DNA of 64,000 nt from NCBI GenBank assembly GCA_951406725.2, contig OX597814.1, positions 113,460,001 through 113,524,000 of the forward strand, in the 5' to 3' direction. This document shows, piece after piece, positions 3,801 through 54,031 of this stretch. The translations under genes and the position numbers were made by a program. The first letter of the stretch is position 1. Every line of letters begins with the position of its first letter. The stretch is from Octopus vulgaris (lineage: Eukaryota). Under the pieces are notes generated by a model, which saw only the letters and a list, made by a program, of their open reading frames with translations, had not been told where the DNA came from and did no database searches.

Positions 3801-4320
3801 AGTGTGCTTCCTAAAAGAACCATTGGATGAGTTTTGATGTGATTTAAGGCGTCTGTTAAATTTGGAAATAACTTACATCTGATACAGAAGTGCCGGAAGG
3901 GGTGCGCTAACTCCGCGAGGAAGCTTGCCTCCTTATCAAGTATCACGTCTTGTGATGGTTTGGATAGAGTTAATTGCATCATCGTATCAGACTTCCTCAT
4001 CATTATTCTTATGGTGTGTTGGTCCTCGGTAAACGTCGCCATTCAGAAGCAAAGGAAGATATCGTGACGTCCTTATAGAAAAATCTTTTGTCTTCGAAAT
4101 TAAGACTGGAGTAAGTAGTTGAAAACCAGGAAGCATTGCTGTCAACAAGAAGTGTTACTTACAATATGAGCGATACAGAATTGCACATCGAATGGGGAAA
4201 CGGGAAGTCCCAGACTTTCCAGACAGCGCTTCCCAACAGATATTAATTCGTCTCTACTATCATTTCAATTCCCCTCCCCTCAACAAACGTAAATCCTGCT
4301 ACCAACTGACAAAATTTATA

Positions 4321-4372
<52 letters not shown>

Positions 4373-4375
<3 letters not shown>

Positions 4376-4754
4376 ATATATATAAACGGCAGTTTGTCTG
4401 TGCGTGTTTCTGTGTGTCTGTTTTCTCGTACCCTCACCCTGACCACGGCTTTCAACCGATTCTGATGAAACTTGACACACGCATAGCCCAATGTCATAAT
4501 TCAAAACTAACGCAGCGAAAATTTTGAAAAGTTCCCCCAGTTCTGAAAAAAATCGATAAATTCGACATGGGGTCGAGAATAAAAAAACAAACCACAGACT
4601 GTCTAGGGGACGCAACTCAACCTTTTTTACTCTCAAAAAAAAATTTACCATCATTTTTTTTCCATTTTTTTGCTATTTTTTGGCTATAACTCTCTAAAGA
4701 TGCTTTATAGTTATTTCCCTTACAAACCTGAGCAACGCCGGGCGATACTGCTAG
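4373..4754 (+). mobile_element. Non-autonomous Helitron
   Basis: 5' TC at 4373, 3' hairpin CCTGAGCAACGCCGGG followed by terminal CTAG (4751-4754), inserted between A and T; shares blocks with 10524-11442. Confidence 0.8.
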
Positions 4755-4755
4755 T

Positions 4756-7700
4756 ATTATATAAAAGGGCTTAGTAAAATAAATTACTTTGCCGCATACT
4801 GAACTCATTAGAAATAGCAGCTAAAAAACTTTTTTAAAACTATTTCTAATACTTAAAGAAAACCTCTCTCATATAGTGTTTGCTCAATTCAACTCACGAA
4901 AGTATGGGGGTAAAGACATCAAAAAATCAAATGCAAAGGTTATTTGAGAACGTACGTTTCAAGATTAGTCAACACGACACTTCTATCATCAGCTCAGAAA
5001 CTCCTTGGTTTGGATTTGAAAACACTGAAAGTGGGAGCATACCCTTTCGGCTTCCCATCGCTTCTGAAGATCTGCTCGCAACTAACAGTGCCAACAAACT
5101 CAAATATGCAAGCGAAGAATTTCTGTTCTCCCCTTTCCACCAGCGTGGGTTAAAATCAGTAAACACTATGCTTATTTCGGTAAAATCCGAAGCATTAATT
5201 AGAGAGAGATTAATTATAATTTCAACAATTGAGGGTAAAATTAATTAATTATTAATCAATTTCACCAAGTGTTCAGTATGCAAAGGGACCATTTAAGGCG
5301 AATTCAAATTATTACATTATATAAAAGGGCTTAGTAAAATAAATTACTTTGCCGCATACTGAACTCATTAGAAATAGCAGCTAAAAAACTTTTTAAAAAC
5401 TATTTCTAATACTTAAAGAAAACCTCTCTCATATAGTGTTTGCTCAATTCAACTCACGAAAGTATGGGGGTAAAGACATCAAAAAATCAAATGCAAAGGT
5501 TATTTGAGAACGTACGTTTCAAGATTAGTCAACACGACACTTCTATCATCAGCTCAGAAACTCCTTGGTTTGGATTTGAAAACACTGAAAGTGGGAGCAT
5601 ACCCTTTCGGCTTCCCATCGCTTCTGAAGATCTGCTCGCAACTAACAGTGCCAACAAACTCAAATATGCAAGCGAAGAATTTCTGTTCTCCTCTTTCCAC
5701 CAGCGTGGGTTAAAATCAGTAAACACTATGCTTATTTCGGTAAAATCCGAAGCATTAATTAGAGAGAGATTAATTATAATTTCAACAATTGAGGGTAAAA
5801 TTAATTAATTATTAATCAATTTCACCAAGTGTTCAGTATGCAAAGGGACCATTTAAGGCGAATTCAAATTATTACATTATATAAAAGGGCTTAGTAAAAT
5901 AAATTACTTTGCCGCATACTGAACTCATTAGAAATAGCAGCTAAAAAACTTTTTTAAAACTATTTCTAATACTTAAAGAAAACCTCTCTCATATAGTGTT
6001 TGCTCAATTCAACTCACGAAAGTATGGGGGTAAAGACATTAAAAAATCAAATGCAAAGGTTATTTGAGAACGTACGTTTCAAGATTAGTCAACACGACAC
6101 TTCTATCATCAGCTCAGAAACTCCTTGGTTTGGATTTGAAAACACTGAAAGTGGGAGCATACCCTTTCGGCTTCCCATCGCTTCTGAAGATCTGCTCGCA
6201 ACTAACAGTGCCAACAAACTCAAATATGCAAGCGAAGAATTTCTGTTCTCCTCTTTCCACCAGCGTGGGTTAAAATCAGTAAACACTATGCTTATTTCGG
6301 TAAAATCCGAAGCATTAATTAGAGAGAGATTAATTATAATTTCAACAATTGAGGGTAAAATTAATTAATTATTAATCAATTTCACCAAGTGTTCAGTATG
6401 CAAAGGGACCATTTAAGGCGAATTCAAATTATTACATTATATAAAAGGGCTTAGTAAAATAAATTACTTTGCCGCATACTGAACTCATTAGAAATAGCAG
6501 CTAAAAAACTTTTTTAAAACTATTTCTAATACTTAAAGAAAACCTCTCTCATATAGTGTTTGCTCAATTCAACTCACGAAAGTATGGGGGTAAAGACATC
6601 AAAAAATCAAATGCAAAGGTTATTTGAGAACGTACGTTTCAAGATTAGTCAACACGACACTTCTATCATCAGCTCAGAAACTCCTTGGTTTGGATTTGAA
6701 AACACTGAAAGTGGGAGCATACCCTTTCGGCTTCCCATCGCTTCTGAAGATCTGCTCGCAACTAACAGTGCCAACAAACTCAAATATGCAAGCGAAGAAT
6801 GTCTGTTCTCCCCTTTCCACCAGCGTGGGTTAAAATCAGTAAACACTATGCTTATTTCGGTAAAATCCGAAGCATTAATTAGAGAGAGATTAATTATAAT
6901 TTCAACAATTGAGGGTAAAATTAATTAATTATTAATCAATTTCACCAAGTGTTCAGTATGCAAAGGGACCATTTAAGGCGAATTCAAATTATTACATTAT
7001 ATAAAAGGGCTTAGTAAAATAAATTACTTTGCCGCATACTGAACTCATTAGAAATAGCAGCTAAAAAACTTTTTAAAAACTATTTCTAATACTTAAAGAA
7101 AACCTCTCTCATATAGTGTTTGCTCAATTCAACTCACGAAAGTATGGGGGTAAAGACATCAAAAAATCAAATGCAAAGGTTATTTGAGAACGTACGTTTC
7201 AAGATTAGTCAACACGACACTTCTATCATCAGCTCAGAAACTCCTTGGTTTGGATTTGAAAACACTGAAAGTGGGAGCATACCCTTTCGGCTTCCCATCG
7301 CTTCTGAAGATCTGCTCGCAACTAACAGTGCCAACAAACTCAAATATGCAAGCGAAGAATTTCTGTTCTCCCCTTTCCACCAGCGTGGGTTAAAATCAGT
7401 AAACACTATGCTTATTTCGGTAAAATCCGAAGCATTAATTAGAGAGAGATTAATTATAATTTCAACAATTGAGGGTAAAATTAATTAATTATTAATCAAT
7501 TTCACCAAGTGTTCAGTATGCAAAGGGACCATTTAAGGCGAATTCAAATTATTACATTATATAAAAGGGCTTAGTAAAATAAATTACTTTGCCGCATACT
7601 GAACTCATTAGAAATAGCAGCTAAAAAACTTTTTTAAAACTATTTCTAATACTTAAAGAAAACCTCTCTCATATAGTGTTTGCTCAATTCAACTCACGAA

Positions 7701-8165
7701 AGTATGGGGGTAAAGACATCAAAAAATCAAATGCAAAGGTTATTTGAGAACGTACGTTTCAAGATTAGTCAACACGACACTTCTATCATCAGCTCAGAAA
7801 CTCCTTGGTTTGGATTTGAAAACACTGAAAGTGGGAGCATACCCTTTCGGCTTCCATCGCTTCTGAAGATCTGCTCGCAACTAACAGTGCCAACAAACTC
7901 AAATATGCAAGCGAAGAATTTCTGTTCTCCCCTTTCCACCAGCGTGGGTTAAAATCAGTAAACACTATGCTTATTTCGGTAAAATCCGAAGCATTAATTA
8001 GAGAGAGATTAATTATAATTTCAACAATTGAGGGTAAAATTAATTAATTATTAATCAATTTCACCAAGTGTTCAGTATGCAAAGGGACCATTTAAGGCGA
8101 ATTCAAATTATTACATTATATAAAAGGGCTTAGTAAAATAAATTACTTTGCCGCATACTGAACTC
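4756..8165 (-). repeat. Tandem array of 560-bp units (6 full + 51-bp partial), each full unit carrying a type I hammerhead on the minus strand
   Basis: Units start at 4756, 5316, 5876, 6436, 6996, 7556 and 8115 (unit 6 has a 1-nt deletion); only a few substitutions between units. Confidence 0.97.
4945..4996 (-). ncRNA. Type I hammerhead ribozyme motif (also at 5505-5556, 6065-6116, 6625-6676, 7185-7236, 7745-7796)
   Basis: Minus strand: TGAG-CTGATGA-stem II (AGA..GTC/GAC..TCT)-GAAA-CGTACG-TT-CTCA; intact core, palindromic stem III AACGTACGTT, stem I TGAG/CTCA. Confidence 0.7.
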
Positions 8166-8709
8166 TAATCTAATTAATGCTTCGGATTTTACCGAAATAA
8201 GCATAGTGTTTACTGATTTTAACCCACGCTGGTGGAAACGGGAGAACAGAAATTCTTCGCTTGCATATTTGAGTTTGTTGGCACTGTTAGTTGCGAGTAG
8301 ATCTTCAGAAGCGATGGGAAGCCGAAAGGGTATGCTCCCACTTTCAGTGTTTTCAAATCCAAACCAAGGAGTTTCTGAGCTGATGATAGAAGTGTCGTGT
8401 TGACTAATCTTGAAACGTACGTTCTCAAATAACCTTTGCATTTGATTTTTTGATGTCTTTACCCCCATACTTTCGTGAGTTGAATTGAGCAAACACTATA
8501 TGAGAGAGGTTTTCTTTAAGTATTAGAAATAGTTTTAAAAAAGTTTTTTAGCTGCTATTTCTAATGAGTTCAGTATGCGGCAAAGTAATTTATTTTACTA
8601 AGCCCTTTTATATAATGTAATAATTTGAATTCGCCTTAAATGGTCCCTTTGCATACTGAACACTTGGTGAAATTGATTAATAATTAATTAATTTTACCCT
8701 CAATTTTTG

Positions 8710-8717
<8 letters not shown>
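8166..8717 (+). mobile_element. Inverted monomer of the 560-bp unit, ending in (TA)n
   Basis: Reverse complement of the array unit; ends ...TTTTACCCTCAATTTTTGAAATTATA followed by (TA)n. Confidence 0.95.
8376..8427 (+). ncRNA. Type I hammerhead ribozyme motif
   Basis: CTGATGA 8380-8386, GAAA 8412-8415, predicted GUU cleavage after 8423, stem I 8376-8379/8424-8427. Confidence 0.7.
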
Positions 8718-8798
<81 letters not shown>

Positions 8799-10515: not shown

Positions 10516-10523
10516 TATATATA

Positions 10524-11442
10524 CTAGCAGCATAGCCCGGCGTTGCCCAGGTATGTAAGAGCCCCTAGTAGGCAACGACTAATCCCAATCTAGTCCTTTC
10601 CCTCTAGGGAACGAAGGCGCATGTGTAGGTTGCAATGTCTTCTCTTCACTCCCAAATAACTATCAAACAGCTATCGATAATTCAACCCAACTAATTCCTA
10701 CCAGGAAGAAATTACATTCGAGACTTTACCCCCAACACCGCAACTTCTGTTAATAGCTGCTGCAGCCGCAAGTTATTCGAATACTTTTTTTGTTTAAACT
10801 TTCTTTATAACTACCACCCCAAACGTTTAACCTTAAATTTTTGACGTACCCTAAGGGTCCTCGGACGCTACTTGCAAACTCTTGGTTTATTATAAACCGC
10901 TTTTGTCGTGTGCACCAAAAAACATTTTCCATTCGTTTGTTCAGTTTGGTTACTTTTGACTTTTTCATTGTTGTCACTCACATTGCTGCCCGCTTTTTTG
11001 CCGTTTTTGTATATTTTTATACATTTTGGGATACTTACCCCACGTGTTCCGAGAGTTAAAAAGGTCGAGTTGCATCCCCTAGACAGTCTGTGGTTTGTGT
11101 TTAATACACAAATCGGTTTGCTATGTGTGCCACATATGATTTAATTAACCGATTTTTTCCAGTAATAAAGTATCCTATTGGAATAAAAAGGGCCATATAG
11201 CTCCTTGGAGCAGACATGATGCTCGCTGTGAATTTTAAAAAAAAATTCCTGCCAATTTGTGAAAGATATTGTCGAAAATATGTCATCTTGAATTTGAACG
11301 CGATTTCCCAAAATGGCATGAATTTATCGATTTTTTCTGATGGTAGGGTATTGCATGGAAAAGTAACGTTAGAATTAAGTTTCTTAGGTAACATTAAGCT
11401 TCACCATGAGTTTGGTGAAAATCGATTGCAAGTTGTGAAAAC
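10524..11442 (-). mobile_element. Non-autonomous Helitron, 5' end lost
   Basis: CTAG at 10524-10527 with adjacent hairpin CCCGGCGTTGCCCAGG; blocks ~11051-11100 and ~11318-11340 are reverse complements of parts of 4373-4754. Confidence 0.7.
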
Positions 11443-38400: not shown

Positions 38401-38469
38401 ATATGTCCCTGTTTATACATGTTTGTATGTTGAATAAATATATATATATTATGTATGTATGTATGTATG

Positions 38470-38556
<87 letters not shown>

Positions 38557-38656
38557 AAATATTGTTGAGTATATATGTATATATATATTGTTCAGTATAT
38601 ATGTATATATATATTGTTGGGTATGTATGTGTATATATATTGAAAAAAGTCAAGAT

Positions 38657-38701
<45 letters not shown>

Positions 38702-38948
38702 GTGTATGTATGTATATATGAATGTATGTATGTATATATGAATGTATGTATGTATATATGAATGTATGTATGTATATATGAATGTAAGTATGTATATATG
38801 AATGCATGTATGTATATATATGAATGCATGTATGTATATATAAATGTGTCTATATATATATATATATATATACGTATGTATATGTATATATATATGTATA
38901 TATGTATGTATAAATATGTAGGCTTATATTTATATATATATATGTATG

Positions 38949-38984
<36 letters not shown>

Positions 38985-39074
38985 TGTAAGCATATATATA
39001 TATATGTACATATATACGAATGTATGTGTATATATATATATATGAATGTATATATATATATATATGAATGTATG

Positions 39075-39105
<31 letters not shown>

Positions 39106-39379
39106 ATGTATGTATGTATATATAAATGTATACATGTATAATATATATAAATGCATGCATATATATATATAAATGTATGTATATATATGTATGAATGTAT
39201 GTATATTTATAAATGTACACATGTATTTATATATAACTGTATGTGTGTATATATATAAATGTATACATGCATATATATGTATGTATATAAAGGTATCAAT
39301 ATATGTATATATATATATATATATATATAATTATATGAAAATGTATATATATGTAAATGTTTATATACAAATATAAACG

Positions 39380-39410
<31 letters not shown>

Positions 39411-39672
39411 GTATCTATTTATATAATTTGTTTATATATATGTAAATGTTTATATATATGTGTGTATCTTTATATGTGTATAAGTATATTAATCTGTGTG
39501 TATATTCATATATGTATATATATTTACATGTATTTGTATGTATTTTAAATATATATGCGTGTATTTATATATACGTATTTATATATATATGTATTTGTAT
39601 ATGTATAATATATACATGTGTATATATATATGTGTGTGAGTACATATCTATGTACATGTAAGTATATCTATA

Positions 39673-39760
<88 letters not shown>

Positions 39761-39903
39761 CATTTTTGGAATGACGGCCTTCCCAAAATGCTAGAATATT
39801 TATTTAAGAATTCAGGAATTGTTATGAATCTTGTAAACCAAATATAAATGCGAAATATTTAAATCTTATTGTTGTAGAAATACATTTCAGGTATTAAACG
39901 TGC

Positions 39904-40076
<173 letters not shown>

Positions 40077-40077
40077 T

Positions 40078-40129
<52 letters not shown>

Positions 40130-40158
40130 GTATATATATATATATAATATGTATATAT

Positions 40159-40190
<32 letters not shown>

Positions 40191-40195
40191 ATATG

Positions 40196-40226
<31 letters not shown>

Positions 40227-40300
40227 TATATATATAATATGTATATATATATGTATATAATATGTATATATATGTATATAATATGTAATATATATATATA

Positions 40301-40356
<56 letters not shown>

Positions 40357-40361
40357 CTCTC

Positions 40362-40569
40362 TTTTAATCTTTTACTTGTTTCAGTCATCTGACTGCGGCT
40401 ATGCTGGAGCACCACCTTTAGTCGAGTAAATCGACCCCGGGCCTTATTCTTTGTAAGCCCAGTACTTATTCTATCGGTCTCTTTTTGCCGAACCGCTAAG
40501 TGACAGGGACGTAAACACACCAGCATAGGTTGTCAAGTAATACTAGGGGGACAAACACACATACACAAA

Positions 40570-40615
<46 letters not shown>

Positions 40616-40750
40616 GACAGGCTTCTTTCAATTTCCGAATCTACATAATCCACTCACAAGGCATTGGTCGGCCTGGGGCTATAGCAGAAGACACTTGCCC
40701 AAGATGCCACGCAGTGGATGAACCCGGAACCATGTGGTTGGTTAGCAAGC

Positions 40751-40752
<2 letters not shown>
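40362..40752 (-). mobile_element. SINE family A
   Basis: Reverse complement of the family pattern. Confidence 0.8.
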
Positions 40753-40836
<84 letters not shown>

Positions 40837-40862
40837 GAATATATATATATATATATATAATA

Positions 40863-41029
<167 letters not shown>

Positions 41030-41107
41030 ATATAATATATATATATATATATATATAATATGATATATATATATATATATATATATATGAATATATATAT
41101 ATATATA

Positions 41108-41148
<41 letters not shown>

Positions 41149-41754
41149 GTATATATATATGTATAATATGTATATATATATGTATAATATGTATATATAT
41201 ATGTATAATATGTATATATATATATGTATAATATGTATATATATATGTATAATATGTATATATATATGTATATATGTATCTATATATTTATGACAACAGT
41301 ATGACAAATGTTGAAGTTACGGAAAATGTTGGTTAGTGGGAATGATTTATTGTTAAATAATTACGATATTTTATGTCCATATTAATGAATATGGATTTTT
41401 AGAAAAGGTTATTAAACTCGCAGTGAATTAATTTATTAGAAAATTGTGAGATCAAAGGCGGTGTAGTAGTGCACATATATAAATATATACACATGTGTGT
41501 ATGTATGTGTACATGCATGTATATGTGTATATGCATGTATGTGTGTGTATATATATATACATGTGTCTCTCTCTATATATATATGTATGCATATAATTTA
41601 TATTTATGTATGTATATAATACGTATGTATATAAGTATATACAAATATATATGTATATATATATATATATGTATATATAGGTATGTATATGTGTCTGTAC
41701 ATATGTAGATATATATGTATGAATCTATGTATTATATATGTATATATTCTGTTA

Positions 41755-44682
<2,928 letters not shown>

Positions 44683-48635: not shown

Positions 48636-49380
48636 CTTTCTACTATTGGCACAAGACCTGGAATTGTGGTGGGTTGGGACTAGTCGATTACATCGAAACC
48701 AGTGTTCAAGTGGTACTTGTTTTATCGATTCCGAAAGGATGAAGGGTAAAGTCAACCTCGGCGGAAATTGAACTCGGGAAGTAGCGGCTACGAACTATCG
48801 CAAAGCATTTTGCTCGACGTGCTTCGTCGCCTTAATAATAATCCTTTCTACTATAGGCACAAGGCCTGAAATTTGTGGGAGGGAGGGAATAGTCGATTAC
48901 ATCAACCCCAGTGATAAAAGGCAAAGTCGACCTCGGCGGAATTTGAACTCGGGAAGTAGCGGCAGACGAAATACCTATTTCTTTACTACCCACAAGGGGT
49001 TAAACACAGAAAGGACAAACAAGGACAGACATAGGTATTAAGTCGATTATATCGACCCCAGTGCGTAACTGGTACTTATTTAATCGACCCCGAAAGGATG
49101 AAAGGCAAAGTCGACCTCGGCGGAGTTTGAACTCAGAACGTAGTGACGAGTGAAATACCTATTTCTTTATTACCCACAAGGGGCTAAACATAGAGGGGAC
49201 AAACAAGGACAGACATAGGTATTAAGTCGATTATATCGACCCCAGTGCGTAACTGGTACTTAATTTATCGACCCCGAAAGGATGAAAGGCAAAGTCGACC
49301 TCGGCGGAATTTGAACACACAACGTAACGGTAGACGAATACTGCTAAGCATTTCGCCCAGCGTGCTAACGTTTCTGCCAA
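48636..49380 (-). mobile_element. SINE family B tandem multimer (~4 monomers)
   Basis: Repeated cores at ~48740, 48920, 49100, 49280. Confidence 0.8.
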
Positions 49381-53568: not shown

Positions 53569-53617
<49 letters not shown>

Positions 53618-53703
53618 TATATACATACATACATACATACACATATACATACAAGTACATATACACATACACACACATATATATATACATACACATACAT
53701 ATA

Positions 53704-53912
53704 TCAACAATTGAGGGTAAGGTTAATTAGTTATTAATCAATTTCACCAAGTATTCAGTTGTAAAAGGACCATTATTTTTATGAGTAAACAATGTCTGAG
53801 GGAAAATATTCTCTAAGTAGTGGAAGAGGCTAAAAAACTTTATTGGCTGCTATTTCTAGAAAGTTCAGTATGCGGCAGAGTAATTTATTTTACTAAGCCC
53901 TAATTATATAAT
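53704..53912. mobile_element. Short diverged relative of the 560-bp family: two 3' termini in inverted orientation
   Basis: TCAACAATTGAGGGTAA..TTCACCAAGT..GGACCATT at left and GCTGCTATTTCTA..AGTTCAGTATGCGGCA..TACTAAGCCC..TATATAAT at right match the two outer ends of 4756-8717. Confidence 0.8.
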
Positions 53913-54031
53913 ATTTTATACATACATACACATACATACACACATACATATACACATACATATGCATACACACATATATACATATATACATACATACATC
54001 TATACATATATACACACACACACACACACGC

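Follow-up and report, generated by a model that had tools for sequence, protein, structure and literature searches.

What kind of event placed a tandem, non-coding repeat with an inverted arm into a (TA)n tract of the Octopus vulgaris genome? The question is raised by a 560-bp repeat at positions 4756 to 8717 of the window, by which we mean the whole stretch of 64,000 nucleotides analysed here (contig OX597814.1 of assembly GCA_951406725.2, positions 113,460,001 to 113,524,000, forward strand). We consider it probable that the array is a young insertion of a dispersed non-LTR retrozyme (one that lacks long terminal repeats), likely copied into (TA)n by the enzyme of a Penelope-like element (PLE) and likely twin-primed on one RNA. 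The class assignment taken by itself, as an animal non-LTR retrozyme and hence a non-autonomous PLE, can be made with high confidence; it was already the original prediction for this locus, and is supported by the tandem hammerhead units, the absence of an open reading frame (ORF), the low GC content and the dispersed family described below.

The array consists of a long minus-strand arm and a short plus-strand arm, placed head to head between (TA)n tracts. Positions with a plus sign are counted from the predicted ribozyme cleavage site. Its features in the window are:

4317..4372, no strand: left (TA)n target tract, read from the sequence
4756..8165, minus strand (RNA sense): short-site arm, 3410 bp or 6.09 units, with the outer 3' end at +193 and the inner 5' end at +143
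4945..4996, minus strand: type I hammerhead of unit 1, predicted cut between 4949 and 4948
5509, 6069, 6629, 7189 and 7749, minus strand: further predicted hammerhead cuts in +560 steps, same motif
8166..8168, no strand: head-to-head junction, 3 extra bases
8169..8717, plus strand: long-site arm, 549 bp, positions 306-560 then 1-294, with the outer 3' end at +294
8376..8427, plus strand: seventh hammerhead, core 8380-8386, predicted cut between 8423 and 8424
8565..8717, plus strand: conserved structured region with both fixed 3' ends, from the tail alignment
8619-8717, plus strand: the ~100-nt 'tail' between the two fixed ends, part of the structured region
8718..8796, no strand: right (TA)n target tract, read from the sequence

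The units begin at 4757, 5317, 5877, 6437, 6997 and 7557, with lengths of 560, 560, 560, 560, 560 and 559 bp, and differ in only 5 variable alignment columns. They are followed by a partial unit (8116-8165), the extra bases and the inverted arm, which is 99.1-99.6% identical to the units and runs into (TA)n on its 3' side. The layout originally described, six units, a partial and an inverted monomer, thus holds, but the partial measures 50 bp instead of 51, the sixth unit is one base short, and the inverted arm lies 11 bp under monomer length in a shifted register. Counted from the predicted cleavage site, the minus-strand array runs from 143 to 560, through five full laps, and from 1 to 193. 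There are seven hammerhead motifs, one per full unit and one in the inverted arm, and the GC content is 0.345-0.351 across 4001-8000. Both the unit count and the inversion junction are taken from the assembly.

No credible ORF is present in the unit, as had been noted from the sequence at the outset. The longest stop-free frames, of 123 aa (antisense) and 91 aa, are not preserved in sister families, and a Pfam search with the frames of the unit gave no match; the 123-aa antisense frame was accordingly rejected as a gene. An ORF with reverse transcriptase (RT) and GIY-YIG domains in cis is absent from the unit, which is therefore non-autonomous.

We searched the genome (2.8 Gb) with the unit and obtained 205 matches at 40 scored loci, from 1578 first-look candidates. 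We analysed 57 loci, made up of these 40, for which full units were a selection criterion, and of 17 more that short queries brought in; five complex loci were excluded from the end counts. The 560-bp repeat is a dispersed, non-coding, multicopy family that ranges from monomers to multimers, and not an array confined to a single locus, which bears out the expectation from the window.

The ends of the insertions follow a strict pattern. Clean head-to-head arrangements occur at 35 of the 57 loci. At 30 of these 35, one outer end lies at +288-296 (about +294) and the other at +188-204 after the cleavage site, and the remaining 5 combine +294 with some other end; loci with like ends number 0/35. 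If arms chose their ends independently, the chance of finding no like pair in 30 loci would be ~1e-9. The 17 one-arm loci end at the long site in 11 cases and at the short site in 6. The outer ends are internal sites of the unit joined to (TA)n, which is found on both sides at 42/57 loci (12-nt test); a target site duplication is unreadable inside (TA)n. Inner ends, by contrast, are scattered (chi-square p=0.24). The family therefore has two fixed ends ~100 nt apart, one of each per two-arm locus, and the inverted monomer of the window, first read as an inverted 5' end, is an arm that stops at the second fixed site, +294.

Both arms of a locus also derive from one template lineage. Of the lineage markers, 47 occurrences (in 16 loci) are shared by both arms and a single one is confined to one arm. 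With three hypervariable columns masked, sequences diverge by 0.34% within an arm, by 0.54% from arm to arm and by 1.3% from locus to locus, and 71 variants are fixed in every copy on both sides. Twin priming from two internal sites on a single RNA, which we regard as quite probable, would produce this pattern. Shared variants are also accounted for by fold-back or self-priming, in which the polymerase turns back on its own complementary DNA (cDNA), or on an antisense template, and so makes the inverted arm; head-to-head Penelope structures have been read in this way in the literature (PMC3846280; here and below, papers are cited from part of their text). Near-palindromic junctions, as fold-back would leave, are present in L305, L311, L344 and L348 and in a sister fold-back family, which was itself chosen by a fold-back query. 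However, at 5/30 loci neither arm contains the other, hence neither can be a DNA copy of the other, and fold-back on DNA cannot yield such loci unless units were lost later. Fold-back would moreover have to start from the short-site arm in 8 loci and from the long-site arm in 17, each time halting exactly at the other fixed site, whereas both sites also act alone as 3' ends in the one-arm insertions. We therefore consider fold-back an unlikely origin of the inverted arms.

The predicted ribozyme is common to all full units and the inverted arm, each with CUGAUGA...GAAA, a 10-nt palindrome and a GUU (8414-8423 and ending at 8423, respectively, in the inverted arm). The seventh hammerhead has a stem I of 4 bp, a U.U mismatch at the base of stem II and a palindromic stem III at 8414-8423. 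Taken alone, the copy in the window is weak evidence for a ribozyme. A scan for hammerheads, as proposed with the original prediction, gave 0 Rfam matches at the gathering score; the isolated ribozyme folds no better than shuffled sequences (z +0.9 to +1.1), and a relaxed hammerhead motif turns up in 28/3000 shuffles of the unit (0.9%). Comparison between families settles the predicted motif, which we accept because its helices covary across four families, in stem I (UGAG/CUCA versus UAUG/CAUA), in both parts of stem II (AGA/UCU versus GGA/UCC proximally, and four different distal helices) and in stem III. In one family C3-G8 is replaced by U3-A8, and some copies there have U3-G8. Together these changes support the earlier proposal of a type I hammerhead with palindromic stem III, predicted to be of the dimer-dependent type. 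Both U3-A8 and dimer dependence have been reported for PLE hammerheads (PMC4209133), and in axolotl HHR_Amex2 the monomer is 22% cleaved in 1 h, with better cleavage in the dimer (PMC7229834). The octopus motif shares with HHR_Amex2 the U.U at the base of helix II and the two-pair helix III with a tetraloop. It differs in a 3x3 internal loop and a distal helix that covaries, which lengthen helix II; in the sister families the mismatch at this base is A.A or C.A, and one of them has U3-A8. The unit is also present as contigs in four runs presumed to be RNA; such contigs carry no information on strand, ends, level or circles.

A local satellite or segmental repeat expanded by unequal crossover, or an assembly artefact, with the hammerhead as a passenger, would fit the signs of local duplication in the long arms, the frequency of the relaxed motif in shuffles, and a junction that is known from the assembly. 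It would not give the same two fixed ends with differing inner ends at 57 dispersed loci, nor a ribozyme that covaries in four families. The dispersed loci refute a satellite as the origin of the element, and as an explanation of the array we regard it as very improbable.

Hammerheads were met in other contexts as well. L034 has one arm (4852-4870) from which the hammerhead core is missing; the deletion, at a GTT microhomology, takes out the ribozyme helix. Unrelated type I hammerhead candidates lie in the random flanks of L041, L051, L060, L068, L073, L081, L103 and L112, and judging from these candidates the genome probably holds further hammerhead repeat families.

Genome searches also revealed the sister families, whose units measure 554-564 bp, and 556-564 bp in the four families with covarying hammerhead stems. 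Between family C and the family in the window, identity is ~66% (598/909 aligned columns). For family D, 10 rows place the end of the main arms at query position 379 and that of the inverted partner arms at 263-282, and the offset between the two ends is the same as in the window family. Across 7 rows, drawn from six families or subfamilies, the region with both fixed ends has a common fold, with 33 pairs and 92% of cells paired, and 6 pairs show two-sided changes. Covariation as high was reached in 1/500 shuffles, with the structure derived from the same alignment. A consensus fold of the whole unit was discarded, since row L230 proved not to be a true monomer, and only the tail alignment was kept. 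A genome search with the tail alone gave no matches, common words being skipped by the search. A further sister family takes the form of fold-backs of ~300 bp, in which one side carries the tail and which resemble miniature inverted-repeat transposable elements (L119:6250-6550, L152-L181; 2046 candidates); the full unit and the ribozyme were not recovered for it.

The original prediction also invoked insertion by a Penelope-type enzyme in trans, which is likely in view of the tail at one end, the inverted copies and the (TA)n targets. We propose that RNA-sense transcripts would be cut slowly, and best as dimers, at GUU, and that the enzyme would bind the conserved structured tail region and nick both strands of the (TA)n target. 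With TA microhomology of a few bases, synthesis would then be primed at +294 from one strand and at +191-203 from its opposite, after which the inner ends of both cDNAs would be joined. An anole PLE offers a precedent: in vitro its RT starts at two internal sites, both target strands are cleaved and extended, and a dimer is predicted (PMC11167929).

A candidate source of the enzyme is present in the same genome. Among 148 GIY-YIG matches (150 of 6136 candidates scored), 16 lie in 781-aa open frames, and 17/20 stretches fetched for long frames hold frames of 771-781 aa with RT and GIY-YIG domains. A cysteine motif precedes the endonuclease, a mark of Neptune and Nematis types (Craig et al., bioRxiv 2021.04.23.441226). 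This Neptune-type element, too, has two fixed ends that abut (TA)n, at +73 and +113 counted from a hammerhead-like motif identified by eye, and both inverted loci seen (L105, L107) carry one of each end. A 466-aa ORF lies upstream of the 781-aa RT frame, and the two overlap in -1 register at the heptamer T TTT TTA, which is found in 10/17 stretches, for example L103 (G000:C6:133342300-133352299) and L113 (C6:112992800-113002799). The overlap is a possible programmed frameshift site, with no stable downstream structure predicted at the heptamer (-3.8 kcal/mol).

Several observations weigh against this account of twin priming by a Penelope-type enzyme. Formally, 25/30 loci are compatible with one arm being copied from the other, the source being the long arm in 17 and the short arm in 8. 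Inner ends lie <=25 nt apart in 4/7 less-biased loci (p=0.002), as fold-back would give, which favours fold-back or a shared physical template end; over all 30 loci the count is 5/30 (p=0.13). The anole PLE shows no difference between strands in its start site in vitro, and does not need its ribozyme there (PMC11167929). An enrichment of inner arm ends at the cleavage site, 7/87 at first, was rejected as a BLAST boundary artefact: with a trimer reference, 6/86 lie within 10 nt (p=0.09), and the inner ends therefore give no sign of ribozyme cutting in vivo. As to the driver, the unit shows no sequence similarity to the PLE pseudo-long terminal repeats (pLTRs) in 70 GIY-YIG stretches (L070-L119, L132-L151), drawn from the 150 scored candidates; its tail is ~100 nt long and that of the Neptune-type element 40 nt; and the unit runs on into a PLE ORF at 0/90 sister-family loci, three of which had separate neighbouring ORF fragments. 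With no detectable shared sequence, the Neptune-type element is a candidate driver only; we give the intact element, as the likeliest driver, about an even chance.

Which RNA served as the template? The cleavage junction is crossed by 79/87 arms, and 58/87 arms are longer than one unit, the loci of the full-unit search having been chosen for full units. Since the unit junctions are intact, the template would be either a ligated 560-nt circle or an uncleaved multimer, between which we see the case as evenly balanced. The anole PLE inserts unprocessed RNA in vitro (PMC11167929), and retrozyme circles have been demonstrated in mussel, coral and axolotl (PMC7229834). In the simplest form of the circle model, foreseen in the original prediction, a ligated monomer circle would be reverse-transcribed for six laps and the array laid in one event. 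Arms of up to 12 units that cross the cleavage site repeatedly are in line with this, as are the variants fixed throughout both arms, and L036, where ~7 units in two arms show no singleton variant outside the masked columns. Circular folds are stable, alike in three families, and beat shuffles, with z values of -5.7, -4.1 and -4.9 on 30-40 shuffles; for the antisense strand of family A, too, z is -5.0. However, long arms have fewer private changes than the opposite arms, 37/40270 versus 22/7640 bases (0.09% versus 0.29%; p=1e-4 without the compound locus L343, p=0.014 with it), a contrast that assembly polishing could mimic. Interior variants of period 2, 3 and 4 (L062, L055, L046) and the G377A common to units 2 and 3 of the window need duplication or a multimer template, periodic subset variants in L046, L055, L057 and L062 speak against a pure monomer circle, and L069 and L306 each mix two haplotypes seen at other loci. 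A single rolling-circle run for all six units is thus not borne out and seems to us somewhat unlikely, as the long arms look partly expanded after insertion; on balance we favour the view that part of the six-unit length arose by local duplication at that stage. More tentatively, and with the odds rather against it, we can imagine head-to-head Penelope-type insertions arising in a single step, from one enzyme complex that would prime both target strands at two fixed, structure-defined sites on a single 560-nt circle and roll in both arms, the retrozyme superfamily of this genome being a long-lived RNA replicon (size and fold fixed, sequence drifted by a third) that is moved by the Neptune-type element without homology.

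Between the left (TA)n tract and the array lies a second element, separate from the unit:

4373..4755, plus strand: Helitron-like non-coding element, 383 bp, with a TC start and a hairpin and CTAGT end

We take it to be Helitron-like from its terminal motifs (TC start, subterminal hairpin, CTAG end). All 40/40 scored copies are 98-100% identical (1817 candidates), often in (TA)n, and partial older matches lie at 10521-10559 and 11051-11102. As the element sits between (TA)n and the array, the original target of the array would have been (TA)n on both sides. It abuts the array at 4755/4756, so that the array could be cargo of its rolling-circle DNA transposition, but the array lies outside the CTAGT end, none of 12 other full-length copies is followed by an array, and the other 39 full-unit-search loci show no such element in 60 flanking bases, bar a possible start in L054. 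The array-free copies and the flanks of the other loci refute a cargo origin, which we consider extremely improbable.

The window holds one further member of the family:

53611..53924, no strand: old two-arm relative (tail arm and short-site arm), ~80% identical, short

This relative stops at the same two sites as the array and sits within a TA/CA tract. Elsewhere, a degenerate (AT)n tract of 5.8 kb occupies 38434-44200, and a 184-bp tandem duplication at 48913-49316 involves a sequence that we presume to be like a short interspersed element. Four other frames in the window (188-333 aa) have no Pfam match.

Two questions are stated as open in the literature cited: how PLEs come to insert as tandem and inverted copies, and whether retrozymes move as circles with PLE enzymes. 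The octopus family leaves a clean record in this respect: start sites are fixed at two positions, an inverted locus has each of them once, and the template lineage is single at a given locus. Many intact copies of the candidate driver, a 560-nt non-coding template and defined starts make both twin priming and the use of circles testable in vitro.

A 2026 preprint traces animal non-LTR retrozymes to PLE pLTRs and gives units of 51-972 bp (Li, Clavereau, Pollet, bioRxiv 2026.07.22.740005). The length of the octopus unit, initially thought unusual, falls within this range, although it exceeds the 150-450 bp given in 2020 (Cervera and de la Pena, PMC7229834). Like the elements described in these two papers, the octopus family is non-coding, poor in GC and built of tandem units that each carry one type I hammerhead; its copies range from monomers to multimers at dispersed sites, and it is co-resident with autonomous PLEs. 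Cleavage and circles have been shown for the published retrozymes; in the octopus family cleavage is predicted and a circle is a possible template. The octopus loci document in turn ends fixed at two sites, a tail of ~100 nt and arms placed head to head. The words 'tail' and 'priming' are absent from the main texts of both papers, and 'inverted' occurs 0 times in one and once, in a reference title, in the other.

PLE insertions (Poseidon PAc of Anolis, PMC11167929; Adineta Penelope, PMC3846280; Naiad/Neptune, bioRxiv 2021.04.23.441226) share with the octopus loci the partial tandems, an inverted 5'-truncated copy, a tail confined to one end, targets that are AT-rich or (TA)n, and two internal RT start sites. 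In contrast to those PLEs, the octopus unit has no ORF and a tail of ~100 instead of 30-40 nt. At the octopus start sites the last bases are TA-rich and match the target; PAc, in contrast, is described as starting without homology (PMC11167929).

In LINE-1 twin priming, two target-strand primers on one RNA give a head-to-head inversion, with arms that are adjacent and do not overlap. The octopus family differs, in that the inner end of the long arm is near the second site in 3/35 loci only (p=0.31), and the arms therefore overlap on the template. Our search, which covered titles and the beginnings of abstracts, with most subscription journals and supplements outside it, found no paper on twin priming in Penelope elements or on cephalopod hammerhead retrozymes. 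The tail, the inverted copy and the AT-rich targets are already known for PLEs; within the scope of that search, no paper was found that counts these features for a retrozyme or that reads the rule of one long and one short end as twin priming.

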